Source: Candidatus Syntropharchaeum butanivorans
GTDB lineage: Archaea; Halobacteriota; Syntropharchaeia; Syntropharchaeales; Syntropharchaeaceae
DNA length: 64,000 nucleotides
NCBI GenBank assembly: GCA_001766825.1
Contig: LYOR01000001.1
Span: 287,746 to 351,745, forward strand
Direction of reading: 5' to 3'
In this document: positions 2,603 through 12,581 of the stretch, piece by piece
Numbering within the stretch: the first letter of the stretch is position 1
Layout: every line of letters begins with the position of its first letter
Program-made: the position numbers and the translations under genes
Notes under the pieces: generated by a model
Told to the model about the DNA's origin: nothing
The model's input: only the letters and a program-made list of their open reading frames with translations
The model's database searches: none

Positions 2603-5600
2603 TCATGTTCCCCTGCTCATCCACTCCCTCACATAATCATCCGATCCAAGATCAAGCCGCGGGATGCGCTCGGTTGAGACCTTCTTGAGAACTCCGAAGA
2701 ACTCCTCCTCCACCCGTGCTTTTGCAGCCTCATCCCTGCCCTCAACCCTGCATATTACCATGGGCTGGGTGTTCGACTTCCTGATCAACGCCTGGCCCAC
2801 CCAGCCCTTATCATCGTACCACCTTATGATTCCACCATCCGTCCTATCGATCTCAAACCCCATTGCTTCAAAGATCTCAAGCGCCTTTCTCACAACCTCC
2901 TCCTTCTCATCGAGGTGGTTTGTAGGGAGCCTTATATTAATCTCAGGGGTTGCAGGGTATCTCGGGACCTCCTCGTCAAGATCGATGAACGTCCTGCCAC
3001 GCCGTTTTGCCTTTGCAATAACACTCAGGATCTTCACCGCTGCAAGTGTCCCATCATCAAACATCCAGTTCTCCTCCTGTCCTGACATCTGATGCCCTGA
3101 AAGCTCTGCTGCAAGAACCACTCCCTCCTCCCCCTTCTCCTTTGAGGCCAGGTATATCTCCTTCATCCGCTCCTTTATGAAGGCAAATCCAGTTGGAGAC
3201 ATGATATAGATCCCTCCATGGGAGGTTATAAACTCCTCAGTGACCCTTGAGAACTTTACCTCTCCCATAAACCTGGGAACCTTTCCCTTCTTCCTGTACT
3301 CCTCTATTATATCCTTTGCCTGGATTGCAAGCGTCCTATCTCCCTCAACGACCCTGCCATCTGATCTCACAAATATCACCCGATCCCCATCCTCATCATG
3401 ACCGAACCCAACGACCTCCTTCTCCTTCTCGCTCTCAGCAACCTTAACAGTTAACTCCTCAAGCTGTCTCCGGTACTTCGCCTTTATTGGATCTGGATGG
3501 TGTGCCGGAAACCTACCATCAGGTGTCTCATTAAGCCCCACGACCTCACAGCCCAGGTTCAGATATACGCTCTTTGTTCTCCACGTGGACCCGTTCCCGA
3601 AGTCTATAACTACCTTAAGACCATCAAGCGGGGCAGCAACCGCGGTCTCCGGCATCTCAATCTCATCCGGTATCCTGAGCCTCTTTTTGATCTCCTGCCA
3701 CCGCTTACCATCTGCTTTTCCTGGAAACTCGATTTCTGCCAGTGTATCAAGGAGTTCTTTCAGATCCCACTCCCTCAAGAGGTGTATCCATATCTCCCGC
3801 CCCAGCCTGCAGTTTGATTCAACGAGAAGGTTGTGATACCGGGGGATAAGCCCATCCTTGACCTTAACACGCTCCCCCTTTCCATAGAGAAAGTCAGATC
3901 CGAGGATTATCCGTTTTATCTCAAGCATCTGGTCTGCATTTATGCTCATTATAAACTCATCGTCGCTTCTTATCACCTGCTTGAGCCCGTTGTAGATTGC
4001 CTCATTGTGGGATGCTGTTATATTTATCCCACCATCTGCATGAAGGAAGGGGATTGCAAAGTAAAGTTCAGGGGTTGAGGTTATCCCGATATCATAGACG
4101 TTGACCCCACTTGAGCGGATCCCATCGATCAATGCCTTTCTTATCCGTTCTGTCGAGAGCCTTATCCCCCCTCCAACACATACCCAGTGCTCACTCTCCT
4201 CTCCCCTCTCACGCCTGAGGTACGTACCATACCCCTTTCCAAGGTAGTAGCATATCCTGTCCGGAAGCATCGTCTCAGGGGCCCTGACATCGTATGTCTG
4301 GAAGATCACAGGGTCTATATGCGAGGGGGTGCGAAGGTACGACTTTAAGACCTTCCCGTTTGATCTGAGCATGTATGAGGTGATTGAGGCAGGAATGAGA
4401 GCCGTCTCACCTGTGCTTAACCGCTCTTTCCTCCCATTATACTCGATCTCAGCCTCTCCTTCGATACACGTCAGCGTGTGGAATGATCCCTTCGTCTCCT
4501 GCAGACCGCTTGATGCGAGAGAGAGTGTGAAATAAACCGTATCAAGGAGCACGGTCTCACCATCAATCTCCCTTGGAGTCTGCTTCAGGCTCTCTGCATC
4601 CTGGTCGGTGATAGATACAAGACATGCCTTATCGAGATGGGTCTCTCGCTGCCGTCCCCAGTCCCAGACCCGGTAGGTGAGGTCAGAGGACTCCTGTATC
4701 TCAAAAAGATGGGTCCCCGCACCTATCGCATGTAGCGTTCCTGGGGGAACGAGAAAGACGTCCCCTTTCTTGATCTCAACCCCGTGGAGAACGTCCTCAC
4801 AGATCTCAGAAAGATCAGCGATCTGTCTTCTCAGAGAGAGGTATATCTTTGCACCCGGCTCTGCATCTATCACGTACCATCCTTCTGTCTTTCCGGGTTC
4901 AGGCTCTCCAAGCCGTGCTGCATCATCATCTGATGGATGCACCTGGACAGAGAGGTTCTCCCTTGCATAGATGAACTTGAGGATTACAGGAAACTCCCCC
5001 CTGAAATCTCTGTAGAGTTGATCCCCGATAATCTCCTCCCCCCGGTGGTTCAGGAGATGAATAAGCGATACATCGATCTCACCTACCTTTATCATCGATG
5101 GATTTTTTGGATGGCCCGAGCAGATCCAGGACTCGCTGCCCCATGGCTTTTCAAGGGTTGAGCCGCTCAGCCTTATGACTGAGCGGCTTAACTGCTCGAA
5201 TTTATCCCCGAGATTGAGCCTCCAGTATCTCTCCCAGGTCTCCCTCTCTCGAAGTGTATCATCGATTGGGACATCTCTCATGAGATGCTCAAGCTCACGG
5301 TATGAGTAAGGATTTGGAAGAAGTCTCATGTCCCAATCCTTCTTCCCGTCCCGTAGAATCCCCCTTTTCATCCTGATCTTACCTTTCATCGGGTGAAAGA
5401 GATCAGCAACCACGTTCTCATCCCCAAGATCAAACCCTGAAAGCTCGATGCAGTTGTAAATAAGGGACTTATTACCGCTAACACCCCTTATCATACTCGA
5501 TATTACGACGCATTCATTGAGATCTGAGTCCTCAACCCTGCTATCAACGACGACACACCCCCTGAGCATGCCTTCGACCTCAGAACCAATGATCCCGGAG

Positions 5601-6664
5601 CTATCTGCCCTGAAGAACGCTCGCATCACCTCCCCCTCCTCTGTATCCTGCGTGAGCTTGAGGAGGTGCTCGTGGTAGAGTATGGGCTGTCCGAGGTCCC
5701 ACCAGTACGTACCTGCTCCCATATCCTTATCACCGAAGATCGCACCTTTTGAGTCGAACCTCTTTATAAGCGGCTCAACCCGCGCTCGCTTCTCAGGCTC
5801 AACCCTGTCAGGAGATGTGAGTGGCATCCAGAGATCAGGGTCTGTATCAAGCTTCCTTCGCTCCTCCAGGTCCTTCTTAAACTCAGATAGAACCTCAATG
5901 AAGAACTCGTATGATATTGAGAAGCACCCAAGTCCCTTACCAATTATAATCCGTCCATCCTCCTGTTTTATCACACCATCCTCAACCAAACGCTCAAACT
6001 CATCCCAGCTCTGCTTCTCAAGCATCATACACCCATCTTCTCTCGGAATCACAAGACCATACGCCTGCCATTCACGCTCCCATTCCTCACGAGTATCTGG
6101 AGCAGGCTTTCTTATCGTGAAGAGCTCAACATGATGCTTCCCCTCAAACTCCACATCACCCGAGGGGATGAAGATCTGATCTGCCCAGAATACACATATC
6201 CGCCCTTTTCTGGATGGTGCAAATATCGAGGACTGGTATATCACCGCCTCAAGCAGCCGCATCGGGACCTTTCTTCCAGAAAGATTGAGAAGTCCGGGAA
6301 GTTTAATACCCGCCTTATCATTTCCCTCAGATTGAACAAGCGGTGCCATCCGTTTCCCATACCCTGCGGTGTGATAGATTGCAATCTTCCCCCCTTGCCT
6401 GAGAAGTGATTCGAGATCCTCATACGCTGAGACCTTCTCCCACGCGTTCAACGTGCCAAGAAGCTGTCCAGCCTCCCACTCCTCAACAACACAGTATATC
6501 CTCGCATCTTTACCGATGATCTGATCCTTCACAGCCTCAAGTCTCTCCTTCCAGAATGCTGCCTGTTTATCACTCGATGTGACGATAATGACCAGATCAA
6601 ACCCCTCAGATCCCTGGATGATCTCATCCATCCGCTGGATGTGGGTATAATAGCAGGTGCTCAT
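2603..6664 (-). CDS. three-domain sugar-activation fusion: N-terminal nucleotidyltransferase-like domain + type I phosphomannose isomerase + phosphomanno/phosphoglucomutase
   Basis: Single 1353-aa ORF. Residues ~500-780 carry PMI cupin motifs (EKPWGSESW, LSVQVHPSDD, GKTEGWYVIDAEPGA, PPGTLHAIG). Residues ~785-1353 carry alpha-D-phosphohexomutase motifs (GGINITASHNEAIYNGLK with the catalytic Ser, AAELSGHQM). Residues 1-480 (DLVIIVTSSDKQAAFWKERLE, FWADQIFIPSGD) resemble the fucose-1-P guanylyltransferase-type pyrophosphorylase domain. Confidence 0.8.
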   Translation of the reverse strand: MSTCYYTHIQRMDEIIQGSEGFDLVIIVTSSDKQAAFWKERLEAVKDQIIGKDARIYCVVEEWEAGQLLGTLNAWEKVSAYEDLESLLRQGGKIAIYHTAGYGKRMAPLVQSEGNDKAGIKLPGLLNLSGRKVPMRLLEAVIYQSSIFAPSRKGRICVFWADQIFIPSGDVEFEGKHHVELFTIRKPAPDTREEWEREWQAYGLVIPREDGCMMLEKQSWDEFERLVEDGVIKQEDGRIIIGKGLGCFSISYEFFIEVLSEFKKDLEERRKLDTDPDLWMPLTSPDRVEPEKRARVEPLIKRFDSKGAIFGDKDMGAGTYWWDLGQPILYHEHLLKLTQDTEEGEVMRAFFRADSSGIIGSEVEGMLRGCVVVDSRVEDSDLNECVVISSMIRGVSGNKSLIYNCIELSGFDLGDENVVADLFHPMKGKIRMKRGILRDGKKDWDMRLLPNPYSYRELEHLMRDVPIDDTLRERETWERYWRLNLGDKFEQLSRSVIRLSGSTLEKPWGSESWICSGHPKNPSMIKVGEIDVSLIHLLNHRGEEIIGDQLYRDFRGEFPVILKFIYARENLSVQVHPSDDDAARLGEPEPGKTEGWYVIDAEPGAKIYLSLRRQIADLSEICEDVLHGVEIKKGDVFLVPPGTLHAIGAGTHLFEIQESSDLTYRVWDWGRQRETHLDKACLVSITDQDAESLKQTPREIDGETVLLDTVYFTLSLASSGLQETKGSFHTLTCIEGEAEIEYNGRKERLSTGETALIPASITSYMLRSNGKVLKSYLRTPSHIDPVIFQTYDVRAPETMLPDRICYYLGKGYGTYLRRERGEESEHWVCVGGGIRLSTERIRKALIDGIRSSGVNVYDIGITSTPELYFAIPFLHADGGINITASHNEAIYNGLKQVIRSDDEFIMSINADQMLEIKRIILGSDFLYGKGERVKVKDGLIPRYHNLLVESNCRLGREIWIHLLREWDLKELLDTLAEIEFPGKADGKRWQEIKKRLRIPDEIEMPETAVAAPLDGLKVVIDFGNGSTWRTKSVYLNLGCEVVGLNETPDGRFPAHHPDPIKAKYRRQLEELTVKVAESEKEKEVVGFGHDEDGDRVIFVRSDGRVVEGDRTLAIQAKDIIEEYRKKGKVPRFMGEVKFSRVTEEFITSHGGIYIMSPTGFAFIKERMKEIYLASKEKGEEGVVLAAELSGHQMSGQEENWMFDDGTLAAVKILSVIAKAKRRGRTFIDLDEEVPRYPATPEINIRLPTNHLDEKEEVVRKALEIFEAMGFEIDRTDGGIIRWYDDKGWVGQALIRKSNTQPMVICRVEGRDEAAKARVEEEFFGVLKKVSTERIPRLDLGSDDYVREWMSRGT

Positions 6665-6800: not shown

Positions 6801-7187
6801 TTAAGTCTTTTCTCTTATAAAGAGTATATGGGTATTGCTCCAGGGCAGGGCCTCCTCTACCCCCATATAATCCTCTCTGCACTCATCACATAGATCCCTG
6901 AGTGATATTGAACCAACCTCTGACGTCCCGGGTATCGTTGAAGCATAAATTATCTCAGGGTCGAGCTCAAGCTCTGCTGCCGCCTCTCTGAGAGTCGGGG
7001 TGATCTTTGGCGCGAAGATCTCCACCTCCTCCATCTCAAGCCCTGCAGTAAAGATCGTGATGCCGGTGCATCCGCAGGCAAAAGAGGATGCACTGAGCTG
7101 TACAACCCAGACCGTTCTCCCTGTGAGCCTGCCAAGCTCCTTCTCAATCGAAGCTCTCCACTCAAGAAGTTTCGCCGGGAGTTTCAA
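6801..7187 (-). CDS. hypothetical Cys-containing protein, last gene of the McrA-like operon
   Basis: 128-aa ORF whose start overlaps the stop of the upstream U32-like gene by 26 nt. It contains CGC and CDEC motifs. No family recognised, and the start is uncertain. Confidence 0.45.
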   Translation of the reverse strand: MKLPAKLLEWRASIEKELGRLTGRTVWVVQLSASSFACGCTGITIFTAGLEMEEVEIFAPKITPTLREAAAELELDPEIIYASTIPGTSEVGSISLRDLCDECREDYMGVEEALPWSNTHILFIREKT

Positions 7188-10725: not shown

Positions 10726-10762
10726 TTCACCTCACCTCCATAATTTTATAAAAATAAAAAAA

Positions 10763-11314
10763 TTACTTAAGCCCCCAGCGCCTGAGCTCATACTCCGCGG
10801 GATTCCCGTGCCCCTTGCCCTCAGGGGTGATCCCGTACTGATCAAGCTCATCCTGGGTGGGTTTGTACCCTTCTTTCTCGATCTTCTCCACGATCGCCAC
10901 ATACCCTGGCGGAGCCCTTGGCTCGCCATGCTCCTCGATCCAGCCAAACATCTTCCCCTCATTGGTGAACTTCTCCGCAGGCAACCTCAGGTTGTTCGTC
11001 CCAGGCTCAACCACCGGTACGTCACACCATCCTTCCCATCTCACCCACTTGTGACCATTCTCGCAGGTGTAGACGTAAAGTGGTGTTGCCTCCCCTCCAT
11101 AGACCATTGCCTTTGCCTTCGTCGTCTTTGGGCCAAGGAACCGCCCGGCATCAGGGACGTACGTGTAAAGCGGCTCCTTGTTCACGATCTTTGCCTTGCA
11201 TGCCGGTATATTATATATATCGTTATCAAAGCCGGAATGTGGACAGAGCTTGTCCACGTTTACCATACCATTCTCAATGATCTTCTTGGTAACGCTGTAA
11301 TCTATCGGCGGCAT
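10763..11314 (-). CDS. hypothetical protein (4 Cys), McrA-like operon member
   Basis: 183-aa ORF, 3 nt after the 375-aa gene and 37 nt before the McrA-like gene. Cys residues occur at CPHSG, PAC, TCENGH and GWC. I find no resemblance to McrG, McrC or McrD. Confidence 0.6.
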   Translation of the reverse strand: MPPIDYSVTKKIIENGMVNVDKLCPHSGFDNDIYNIPACKAKIVNKEPLYTYVPDAGRFLGPKTTKAKAMVYGGEATPLYVYTCENGHKWVRWEGWCDVPVVEPGTNNLRLPAEKFTNEGKMFGWIEEHGEPRAPPGYVAIVEKIEKEGYKPTQDELDQYGITPEGKGHGNPAEYELRRWGLK

Positions 11315-11317
11315 CTT

Positions 11318-12445
11318 TCACACCTCCTCCATCATCCACTCGGGATGCTCCTTCCTTGCTTTATATATGATCTCAGTGGCATCCCTGTGCGAGACCACAG
11401 TCTTTGCCGGGAGTGGATACTCTGTTGGATGCTGGACCCTTGCCTCCTCACCATAGATGTACTTGGACTGCTTGAACGTATCCGGGAAGACGTACCTGTC
11501 CATACCATACCTTATAATCCGCCTTGCGGTCTCCTCTGGAGTGCATGGAACGATCTCCATACCCTCTATCTCAAGGTGTATCTCATGTGGTGAGATCGTG
11601 TACTTGCTGGACCAGTTATCACCCAGAATCAGCGCGTTCCACCTCCAGTTGAAGATATCAGGCGGATTTTCCACGAGAAGCTCAAGCCCCACTGGCCTTG
11701 GTAGCTCATCGCAGGTTGACTTGAAGGGCCAGCCCATCTTCTCACAGTTGAAGAACGGGTACATCCCCATGACCGCGTCCATCGTGGATCTTGAGGGGAA
11801 AGCCTCGTTGTACCCGTGATGGGACTGCCAGCATCCCTGATGGTATGCAGACATCGCATACTCCGGAGTATCCTCGTTTCTGACATCCATCAGGATATCT
11901 CTGATGAGCATCACAGCCTCAAACGCTGGGTAGGAGTATGGGAGATCTCTCACCGGTTTTCCAACCTTCATGTGCTTCCGCTCAATAAGCTCCTGCCCCT
12001 CACCTGGATCCGTCATCGCGATGTACGTCATCACACCATCCTCGTAGTGGTACGAGACGGTATGAGGGTTTGCCCTCCCTGAGAAGTTATCTGATTGCAG
12101 CCAGCATAGATCGAGGGACTTGCCGAATAACGCAATCGTTGCCGCAGGATCAAGCGGAACAGCCGCGGAGTAACAGGGTGGATAACCAAGTGTAACGGTT
12201 GTTTTATCCGGGTCTGTCAGAAGCCCCTGGGTCCAGAGATTGACCGTCTGAGAGGATTCAAGCATCCCGATCCTCCACCACTGTGAGACCTCGGTCTGCC
12301 GATACTTATCAAGCGCCTGTGTAAGCTTGAGTGGGGTCTCACGCTTCGGGTCCCCGGGTCTTCCGACCACATGCGTCTCAAACATCCACCGCTCATACGC
12401 CCATTCCTCTGTGAAATCGTGATGCGGCCTTCCTATCTTCTCCAT
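11318..12445 (-). CDS. hypothetical protein, first gene of the McrA-like operon
   Basis: 375-aa ORF with an ATG start and GGAGG 7 nt upstream. It is Trp/aromatic-rich. The McrB hallmarks as I remember them (e.g. the C-terminal Gly-rich SIYGGGGPG block) are absent. No family recognised. Confidence 0.65.
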   Translation of the reverse strand: MEKIGRPHHDFTEEWAYERWMFETHVVGRPGDPKRETPLKLTQALDKYRQTEVSQWWRIGMLESSQTVNLWTQGLLTDPDKTTVTLGYPPCYSAAVPLDPAATIALFGKSLDLCWLQSDNFSGRANPHTVSYHYEDGVMTYIAMTDPGEGQELIERKHMKVGKPVRDLPYSYPAFEAVMLIRDILMDVRNEDTPEYAMSAYHQGCWQSHHGYNEAFPSRSTMDAVMGMYPFFNCEKMGWPFKSTCDELPRPVGLELLVENPPDIFNWRWNALILGDNWSSKYTISPHEIHLEIEGMEIVPCTPEETARRIIRYGMDRYVFPDTFKQSKYIYGEEARVQHPTEYPLPAKTVVSHRDATEIIYKARKEHPEWMMEEV

Positions 12446-12581
12446 CTAAGCGCCTCCTTTTATATCACAATTAATCTGCATATATATGCTTGCATACCCC
12501 TATCTCAACTCATTCTATATATAGTTAATGCTTTGGAGATTCACCGAGCCATCCTGAGATTCCTGAGATACCTGCGTGTGA
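12446..12581 (-). promoter_or_regulatory. putative promoter/leader of the McrA-like operon
   Basis: This is a 136-bp AT-rich spacer between the PolX stop and the 375-aa gene start. SD GGAGG lies at 12453-12457 (minus sense). Palindromic TATA-like elements are GCATATATATGC (12478-12489) and CTATATATAG (12515-12524). Motif-level evidence only. Confidence 0.3.

Follow-up and report, generated by a model that had tools for sequence, protein, structure and literature searches.

Background

In methanogens, the operon for methyl-coenzyme M reductase (MCR) has the order mcrBDCGA, with a small set of non-catalytic genes between the structural genes of the reductase. McrD is thought to act in assembly or F430 delivery, and McrC in activation. 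Alkyl-coenzyme M (alkyl-CoM) reductases (ACRs) are, to our knowledge, the only known archaeal route for the anaerobic activation of non-methane alkanes. We know of no active ACR that has yet been produced heterologously, and reviews known to us describe the accessory proteins as unknown. Here we analyze a stretch of 64,000 nucleotides (contig LYOR01000001.1; hereafter "the window") from Candidatus Syntrophoarchaeum butanivorans, whose proteins were matched to this source by exact sequence. In the window, two genes annotated as hypothetical, which we call P1 and P2, directly precede acrA, the gene for an ACR alpha subunit. The best explanation of our results is that P1-P2 is a previously undescribed two-protein module, with a large and a small subunit, that is dedicated to one ACR clade.

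S. butanivorans has four ACR gene sets, three of them in operons (PMC9081873). The acrA gene in the window, SBU_000314, is among the four AcrA genes given in the PMC11543930 supplement, which also has an additional AcrG/AcrB pair, SBU_001009/SBU_001010. The "most expressed MCR" of this organism was modelled as OFV67021, the protein encoded by the window's acrA, together with OFV66073 and OFV66072, the beta and gamma subunits being encoded elsewhere (Lemaire and Wagner, PMC9118554). Similarly, acrA_3 of Alkanophaga ranks in the top 4-19 by expression whichever alkane is used, and is separate from acrB and acrG, as in Syntrophoarchaeum (PMC10322722). In a limited literature search, which included the available part of the PMC11543930 supplement, we found no paper that names or discusses SBU_000315/316 or OFV67022/67023, the genes and proteins that are the subject of this work.

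Results

Gene order in acr clusters

We made open reading frame (ORF) calls and phmmer maps for 62 loci from GTDB species genomes and 62 independent metagenome loci, which are numbered with the letter L below. E-values from these maps refer only to the candidate stretches. The maps show the P1-P2 pair in acr clusters of both sets, and the co-occurrence with this McrA clade, which the initial annotation proposed as a check, does extend to other genomes. In the Syntrophoarchaeum type (the window, L004, L068 and L071), the order is P1-P2-acrA-P4-U32-DUF5402, where P4 is an SCP2-like protein (of the type of sterol carrier protein 2) and U32 stands for a protein of the U32 family. The Alkanophaga type is P2-P1-YcaO-acrA (L001, L005, L073 and L074). 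The order P2-P1-acrA occurs in three loci (L010, L072 and L075), and in L008 the pair is beside acrA in either the P2-P1-acrA or the P1-P2-acrA order.

In other relatives, the operon also contains the genes for the beta and gamma subunits. The order acrB-acrG-(P1-P2)n-acrA-P4 occurs in L009, L012, L018, L076 and L077, and with L003 and L063 these clusters can be summarized as acrB-acrG-(P1-P2)x1-3-acrA-SCP2. The full order in L003 is McrB-McrG-P1-P2-P1-P2-P1-P2-(B12 radical SAM)-McrA-P4-P2-P1, and the identities of McrB, McrG and McrA were confirmed with Pfam. L063 has the order McrB-McrG-P1-P2-P1-P2-McrA-P1-P2-rSAM (radical SAM), with Pfam-confirmed MCR_beta and MCR_gamma domains. P1 and P2 are beside McrB and McrG identified by phmmer in seven loci (L009, L011, L012, L018, L076, L077 and L086). 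The P1/P2 genes are thus not mutually exclusive with genuine mcrB and mcrG, which share an operon with them in L003 and L063.

In Helarchaeota, a divergent P1 subfamily that we call P1hel is part of acr clusters with the order acrA-P1hel-(537-aa ABC-type ATPase)-SCP2-acrB-acrG (L020, L024, L088 and L090-L092). We take the ATPase to be component A2, a reading made by eye rather than by a domain scan. In five further loci (L098 and L102-L105), P1hel is at most ~2 kb from acrAGB.

The P1/P2 clusters also contain MCR maturation genes, namely YcaO and B12-binding radical SAM enzymes. YcaO functions in thioglycine formation, and the B12-radical-SAM enzymes are of the Mmp10/MgmA type. Some P1-P2 pairs are away from acr genes (L013, L017, L019 and L065), and one pair adjoins a thermosome gene.

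Arrays of two to four divergent P1-P2 pairs occur in or beside one acr cluster in uncultured Syntropharchaeia (L003:6334-17250, L007:1908-7038, L008:3-4916 and L063:4204-11094), and both P1-P2 and P2-P1 orders are found in these arrays. ADP-forming acyl-CoA-synthetase-like genes (CoA_binding and Succ_CoA_lig domains; CoA, coenzyme A) lie within ~1-2.5 kb of P1-family genes at L001:5803-9199, L065:7683-9152 and L069:3995-7063. This association spans three lineages, i.e., Alkanophaga, a metagenome-assembled genome (MAG) from a tar biofilm and Helarchaeota (L069/L070). In the Alkanophaga locus (L001), a tungsten-type aldehyde:ferredoxin oxidoreductase is also near P1. The proximity of the synthetase and oxidoreductase genes is suggestive at most and could be due to chance.

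The N-terminus of the McrA protein in L005 is identical to that of acrA_3 in PMC10322722, and in the source table of that paper acrA_3 and YcaO are accompanied by two genes without annotation (1155 and 459 bp). Their length and position fit the P1 and P2 homologues of L001/L005. The genes are drawn in that paper (PMC10322722) without discussion.

Pairing and distribution of P1 and P2

A P2 gene is on the same strand within 200 nt of 27 of the 28 full-length P1 genes, and the exception is at a contig end. Pairwise distances among the P1 and P2 proteins are correlated (r=0.83), while shuffled partners reached a maximum of 0.35 in 1000 shuffles. Moreover, tandem P1-P2 paralogues group into subclades that are orthologous across genomes. 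Because of this adjacency, the correlated distances and the orthologous paralogue subclades, we conclude that P1 and P2 duplicate and diverge as a unit. This behavior is expected of an obligate heteromer, and we infer that the two proteins form a physical complex.

The named members of the P1 family come solely from ACR-bearing lineages: Syntrophoarchaeum, Alkanophagales, other Syntropharchaeia, Halobacteriota MAGs from tar biofilms, and Helarchaeota/Promethearchaeota. One source of P1, the DAOWMC01 lineage, is among the ACR-bearing Syntropharchaeia according to PMC12533140. The sequence searches, as judged by organism-named matches only, did not find the P1 family in Ethanoperedens, Methanoliparia, Hadarchaeota, Bathyarchaeia, ANME-1 or methanogens.

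The P1 protein

The initial annotation described P1 as rich in Trp and aromatic residues, and its composition agrees with this (3.2% Trp; 11.7% W+Y+F). Neither P1 nor P2 was assigned to a family in the initial annotation, and our searches lead to the same result: as single queries, P1, P2 and P4 have no match in Pfam, NCBIfam or PDB sequences (for P1, at E<=1 in Pfam and NCBIfam). No Pfam match at E<=10 was obtained for 59 members of the P1 family, and the broad P1 alignment has no match among PDB sequences. A word-indexed homologue search recovered 9 clusters for P1 and 3 for P2. When 1.84 billion representative proteins were searched exhaustively with the P1 profile (HMMER), only 74 matched at E<=1e-3, with no McrB among them, so the family is very rare. 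A further search with the broad P1 profile re-found only hypothetical proteins. A comparison with hhalign gave no mutual relationship among P1, P2 and P4.

In 81 sequences, the near-invariant positions of P1 are G108, D112, H133, E135, G137, R156, R/K157, H158, G162, D183, D187, R189, N190, E191, P194, P249 and P251. This conservation pattern suggests a catalytic or ligand-binding site over a purely structural protein. Some homologues have 434-443 aa, and their extra length is an acidic helical insert that has no counterpart in the P1 protein of the window.

AlphaFold2 models had a mean predicted local distance difference test (pLDDT) score of 38.9 for P1 (alignment of 10 sequences) and 39.3 for P2 (alignment of 3 sequences). 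A Foldseek search of PDB with the low-confidence P1 model (pLDDT 38.9) gave nothing at E<=0.001, and template modelling (TM) scores were at most 0.10.

The P2 protein

Four spaced Cys residues in P2 were pointed out in the initial annotation. All four are present, at positions 24, 39, 84 and 97, in the motifs CPHSG, PAC, TCENGH and GWC, but only C24, C39 and C84 are conserved, together with H88; C97 is replaced by Ala in almost all relatives. The conserved core can be written as C24...C39...C84-E-x-G-H88-x3-R-P-x2-W-A-D-V-P, in which C24, C39, C84 and H88 are invariant in 25 sequences. Invariance further extends to I43, Y82, E85, R92, V99 and V102, and E47, P48, G87, P93, W96, A97 and D98 are near-invariant.

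The Cys3-His motif is a putative metal site, for Zn or a small Fe-S cluster. Like known Cys3-His metal sites (Zn sites of the zinc-ribbon or treble-clef type, and Fe-S sites with three Cys and one His such as CDGSH), P2, a small beta-rich protein, combines exactly three conserved Cys with a single conserved His, and one of these Cys forms a C-x3-H element with the His (C-E-N-G-H). However, the spacing C-x14-C ... x44 ... C-x3-H fits neither the classical CxxC knuckle nor the CDGSH signature. The candidate ligands are invariant in P2, their spacing is non-canonical, and profile searches gave no match. The 25 members of the P2 family have no Pfam match at E<=10, and the P2 profile has none among PDB sequences.

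Relatives of P2 have 105-152 aa. The P2 protein of the window is longer, owing to a C-terminal tail of ~70 residues that is confined to Syntrophoarchaeum. The tail comprises residues ~114-183 (window 10763-10972, minus strand) and ends in ...GKGHGNPAEYELRRWGLK; other P2 homologues have no tail.

The Helarchaeota subfamily

P1hel, from Helarchaeota/Promethearchaeota, is related to P1 only over ~200 residues in the middle of the protein (hhalign probability 99.9%, E=8.5e-34). It lacks a P2 partner, and its C-terminal domain differs from that of P1 and ends in a conserved I-I-S-x-G-x-G-x-x-T motif. According to hhalign, P2 is not concealed in the P1hel C-terminus. P1hel paralogues are numerous in Helarchaeota (L020-L062 and L088-L132, e.g., L022:5125-11122), with at least 12 loci from genome LW55_61. 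Most are dispersed, and some are within acr clusters beside the A2-like ABC ATPase. Clustering the neighborhoods of ~55 P1hel genes (~280 neighbors) gave no strongly recurrent partner; radical-SAM genes were near ~4 of the 55, and acyl-CoA-synthetase-like genes were in a few loci.

A mobile element was considered for the multicopy P1hel genes and was rejected. The closest paralogues are 64-72% identical in DNA (~68%), their similarity is confined to the coding sequence, and they have no shared flanks and no terminal repeats.

P1hel also occurs on contigs in bacterial bins, namely L036, L039 and L062 ("Candidatus Deferrimicrobium" bin) and L051 ("Desulfobacterales" bin). At least L039 is probably a misbinned archaeal contig, because the Thi4 / ThiN / ADP-ribosylglycohydrolase synteny next to its P1hel gene is shared with the Helarchaeota/Promethearchaeota contigs L027, L028, L067 and L069.

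The SCP2-like and U32 proteins

P4 starts 6 nt past acrA and is kept after acrA or within acr clusters in Syntropharchaeia and Helarchaeota. Further P4 genes are at L003:15010-15561, L012:14781-15326, L018:13397-14035, L020:7955-8455, L030:4571-5086, L076:4923-5537 and L088:10656-11159. The P4 of the window is below threshold on its own, but 5 of 11 family members match Pfam SCP2 (best 1.2e-5) and 4 of 11 match Alkyl_sulf_C. The P4 profile matches the PDB SCP2 chains 4uei, 1c44, 2c0l and 1qnd at 2e-4 to 7e-4, with the C-terminal G-x-l-x-i-x-G-n helix-strand motif aligned. It is plausible that P4 is a carrier for the alkane or for alkyl-CoM.

The 350-aa U32-family protein (Peptidase U32 / UbiU-TrhP-RlhA family) matches Pfam Peptidase_U32 (6.6e-11, 42 bits against a cut-off of 22.4) and PDB 5d88 (1.7e-21), and has Cys-rich motifs, i.e., CX3C and a C-terminal CX3CX2CX2C. 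Its gene is syntenic only within Syntrophoarchaeum, where it is present in three further loci (L004:14220-15284, L068:13098-14159 and L071:7072-7701).

In anaerobic ubiquinone synthesis, the UbiT-UbiU-UbiV system combines an SCP2 carrier with U32-family proteins in O2-independent, prephenate-dependent hydroxylation. The P4-U32 pair of Syntrophoarchaeum likewise combines a lipid carrier and a U32 enzyme, a likeness that concerns P4 and U32, not P1 and P2. Because SCP2 plus U32 is the UbiT/UbiU-UbiV gene pairing, the analogy makes the Syntrophoarchaeum U32 protein a candidate for hydroxylating alkyl chains or alkyl-CoM anaerobically. However, it resembles UbiU only very weakly (NCBIfam E=0.027; 13.6 bits, where the cut-off is 440) and is not assigned to UbiU, and Syntrophoarchaeum has no adjacent second U32 gene resembling UbiV.

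Both families appear in PMC11543930 and its supplement. SBU_000313 (P4) is listed there as an unannotated family, present in 3 of 7 Syntropharchaeia that have an ACR but in 0 of 54 relatives, and the U32 family is in 5 of 7 versus 0 of 54.

Layout of the locus

The features of the region are given in Table 1. In the six-gene block on the minus strand, the first four spacers measure 3, 37, 6 and 36 nt, and the last two genes overlap slightly. The initial annotation's account of this region stands: P1 and P2 are genuine ORFs, P1 has a GGAGG Shine-Dalgarno sequence, P1 and P2 are translationally coupled with a 3-nt spacer, the McrA homologue comes next, and the 261-aa antisense ORF is a shadow. 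The sequence AAAGGAGGcgcttagATG is read 5' of P1, and GAGGTG at the 3' end of P1 is the Shine-Dalgarno sequence of P2. P1 and P2 have homologues, and synonymous codon differences from the orthologues in L004 (Syntrophoarchaeum sp.) exceed non-synonymous ones (108:35 for P1 and 62:43 for P2), so both genes are under purifying selection. The longest open antisense stretch in L004 is just 118 codons.

Table 1 Features in and around the P1-P2-acrA block (positions in the window)
Feature	Position	Strand	Basis or remark
P1, 375 aa, ATG start	11318..12445	minus	ORF list; OFV67023.1 / SBU_000316, annotated hypothetical
P2, 183 aa, ATG start	10763..11314	minus	ORF list; OFV67022.1 / SBU_000315, annotated hypothetical
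AcrA (McrA homologue), 623 aa	8854..10725	minus	OFV67021.1 / SBU_000314; Pfam, NCBIfam and PDB matches
P4, SCP2-like, 198 aa, SBU_000313	8251..8847	minus	5 of 11 family members match Pfam SCP2; family profile matches PDB SCP2 chains
U32-family protein, 350 aa, SBU_000312	7162..8214	minus	Pfam Peptidase_U32, PDB 5d88
DUF5402 protein, 128 aa, final gene of the conserved six-gene block	6801..7187	minus	Match 4.9e-25
Shine-Dalgarno AAAGGAGG, 7 nt 5' of the P1 ATG, with TATA-like, AT-rich sequence before it	12446..12465	minus	
P1/P2 junction, GAGGTG-TGA-AAG-ATG	11315..11326	minus	Sequence
P2-acrA spacer, 37 nt, AT-rich, TAA-GTAATTTTTTTATTTTTATAAAATTATGGAGGTGAGGTGAA-TTG	10726..10762	minus	Sequence
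Antisense ORF, 261 aa, shadow of P1/P2, no gene	10808..11593	plus	Closed in L004

The 623-aa protein is a genuine but diverged McrA (Pfam MCR_alpha_N 1.6e-87 and MCR_alpha 4e-22; TIGR03256 483 bits, where the cut-off is 768). Among PDB sequences it matches MCR alpha chains best (1e-131), ahead of ethyl-CoM reductase (4e-88). Deletion of the 239-246 loop leaves an open cleft in AcrA. No mcrB or mcrG was found within the 64-kb window.

In the spacer between P2 and acrA, a run of seven T residues comes straight after the P2 stop codon, and a TTTATAAAA element is ~20 nt 5' of the acrA Shine-Dalgarno sequence GGAGGTGA. The spacer may contain an archaeal terminator and an internal promoter of acrA's own, with higher acrA expression as a possible result.

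Directly 3' of the acr block, two Syntrophoarchaeum species have a 1353-aa fusion protein (window 2603-6664, minus strand; L068:14627-18712). Its L068 orthologue has Pfam mannose-6-phosphate-isomerase/cupin and phosphoglucomutase/phosphomannomutase domains. By eye, rather than by domain scan, the N-terminal part resembles a nucleotidyltransferase.

Discussion

P1-P2 could be an accessory heteromer that is dedicated to the ACR and has the enzyme itself as its target. It would serve in maturation, assembly, cofactor loading or activation, or possibly as an auxiliary subunit. We give this reading about an even chance. We favor it because the pair is fixed just 5' of acrA in operons that also hold maturation genes, because genomes with several ACRs have a separate pair or pairs for every acr cluster, and because the pair has moved with acrABG and the SCP2 gene between distant phyla. 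It is also favored because the P1/P2-bearing operons have no mcrC or mcrD, and because searches did not recover the family from other archaea that form alkyl-CoM, a result that speaks against a general role in the pathway. We infer that the target of P1-P2 is the ACR protein and not its product.

The coupled genes would yield a P1-P2 heteromer, made together with AcrA. P1 would bear a functional site, made up of the constellation of invariant His, Glu, Asp and Arg residues, and P2 would supply the Cys3-His metal center, with Zn or a small Fe-S cluster. This heteromer would target the ACR, by assembling the apo-enzyme, loading its cofactor, introducing a clade-specific modification, activating it, or remaining bound as an auxiliary subunit. 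P1 and P2 would take the operon slot that McrD and McrC hold in methanogens.

Like McrD and McrC, P1 and P2 are a small, non-catalytic gene set between structural genes of a reductase operon, and their slot between acrG and acrA is comparable to that of mcrD and mcrC. This analogy is one of position alone. There is no sequence likeness between the two sets, the Pfam families MCR_C and MCR_D give no match even at E<=10, and curated Pfam/NCBIfam models of McrC, McrD and the methanogenesis-marker activation families have no match to P1, P2 or P4. The sizes also differ, with 375-443 aa for P1 and 105-183 aa for P2 versus roughly 200 and 160 aa in the methanogen set. Unlike McrD and McrC, P1 and P2 come paired, often in several divergent copies per operon, and are confined to one ACR clade. 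The related ANME-1 archaea have no mcrD, and their mcr operons have neither mcrC nor mcrD (PMC9081873).

Several observations weigh against an accessory role. For a chaperone or a stoichiometric subunit, it would be unusual that an acr cluster has two to four divergent pairs (L003, L007, L008 and L063), and the dispersed P1hel paralogues, at least 12 in at least one Helarchaeota genome and dozens across the genomes scanned, would be odd for a chaperone. Some P1-P2 pairs are distant from any acr gene (L013, L017, L019 and L065). The many invariant charged residues of P1 look more like an active site than a scaffold, and the maturation genes in the cluster could be there owing to acrA, not P1/P2. 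No P1 match came from Ethanoperedens, Methanoliparia, Hadarchaeota or Bathyarchaeia, so that ACRs at large are apparently able to mature without it. Finally, with a pLDDT of ~39 for both AlphaFold models, neither a chaperone-like nor an enzyme-like fold can be claimed.

The main rival reading, which we regard as a tentative possibility, is that P1-P2 is a metabolic enzyme that acts on the product of the ACR, either in a step from the alkyl-CoM thioether to acyl-CoA or in the proposed rearrangement of 2-alkyl-CoM to 1-alkyl-CoM. Equally tentatively, P1 might have the active site, in which conserved Arg residues could bind the CoM sulfonate, P2 might provide a Zn or Fe-S center, P4 might carry the hydrophobic substrate, and each paralogous pair might have its own chain length or isomer. 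[quoted passage not shown] Alkyl-CoM has been documented in both terminal and subterminal isomers (PMC10322722), and divergent paralogue pairs are kept as orthologous subclades, which fits substrate diversification. The invariant P1 residues H133, E135, R156, R157, H158, D183, D187, R189, N190 and E191 and the Cys3-His motif of P2 also suit an enzyme, as do the SCP2-like hydrophobic-ligand carrier in the same clusters and the pairs that stand alone, distant from acr genes. The acyl-CoA-synthetase-like genes near the P1 family in three lineages (L001, L065 and L069/L070), once with aldehyde:ferredoxin oxidoreductase, point the same way, but the association is weak and does not recur among ~50 Helarchaeota loci. 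As the family was not found in Ethanoperedens, Methanoliparia, Hadarchaeota or Bathyarchaeia, such an enzyme would not be a general solution. Moreover, only one pair was found in S. butanivorans versus four acrA genes, and the presence of separate pairs for each acr cluster in multi-ACR genomes resembles a protein-specific partner more than a shared pathway enzyme. P1 and P2 also have no cofactor-binding or enzyme-family signature.

An extended form of this idea, in which P1-P2 and the SCP2-like P4 (with U32 in Syntrophoarchaeum) are the missing machinery for converting alkyl-CoM to an aldehyde, acid or acyl-CoA, or for isomerizing subterminal to terminal alkyl-CoM, seems unlikely. If it were true, acr clusters of Syntropharchaeia and Helarchaeota would encode alkane activation plus the next step, via an enzyme family without known relatives.

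It is quite improbable that P1 and P2 are functionally unrelated passengers with no more than a tendency to be located close to acr genes, whether as a selfish or mobile element, as a regulator, or as a pair for general stress or housekeeping functions. The abundance of dispersed P1hel paralogues in Helarchaeota, and the pairs away from acr genes, one of them next to a thermosome gene, could be explained in this way. However, the similarity between Helarchaeota paralogues (~68% in DNA) ends at the coding sequence, without common flanks or terminal repeats, and Pfam and NCBIfam reveal no transposase, defense or regulator domains in P1 or P2. Two archaeal phyla share their position within acr operons, where the genes follow one another on the same strand with a few nt between them, and, as noted, the named members are solely from ACR-bearing lineages.

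The initial annotation's proposal that P1 and P2 replace McrB and McrG, either as extremely diverged forms or as structural analogues, would imply an alpha-P1-P2 reductase and is hardly credible: the pair is directly 5' of a stand-alone mcrA in a 64-kb window without mcrB or mcrG, and the 434-443-aa P1 homologues are McrB-like in length, but the proposal is refuted because P1/P2 coexist with real beta and gamma genes, because hhalign probabilities are negligible, and because no McrB is among the P1-profile matches. In at least 10 related loci, P1 and P2 sit between true McrB and McrG genes and acrA, and in S. butanivorans the orphan acrBG pair elsewhere in the genome has been assigned to this alpha subunit (PMC9118554; PMC11543930 supplement). 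The hhalign probabilities of the P1, P2 and P4 profiles against those of McrA, McrB and McrG are 0.1-0.4% (P1 versus McrB 0.1%, P2 versus McrG 0.1%), and that of P1hel versus McrB is 1.8%. P1 and 59 family members have no match to the McrB families PF02783 and PF02241, nor do P2 and 25 members match the McrG family PF02240. The extra length of the long P1 forms is the acidic insert that the window's P1 does not have. The alternative offered in the initial annotation, a substrate-related module, is possible.

Conclusions

Judging from their sequences, the P1 and P2 families have no detectable relatives, while the system that hosts them, an MCR-type reductase operon with accessory genes, is already known. 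The flux-carrying acrA genes of both cultured genera, Syntrophoarchaeum (SBU_000314) and Alkanophaga (acrA_3), are flanked by this conserved, unannotated pair, and acr operons of two phyla contain it together with an SCP2-like gene. The results also correct the tempting misreading that this ACR is without beta and gamma subunits. Whether P1-P2 is a maturation factor or auxiliary subunit of the ACR or a downstream enzyme, the two proteins are concrete and cheap candidates for experimental work.

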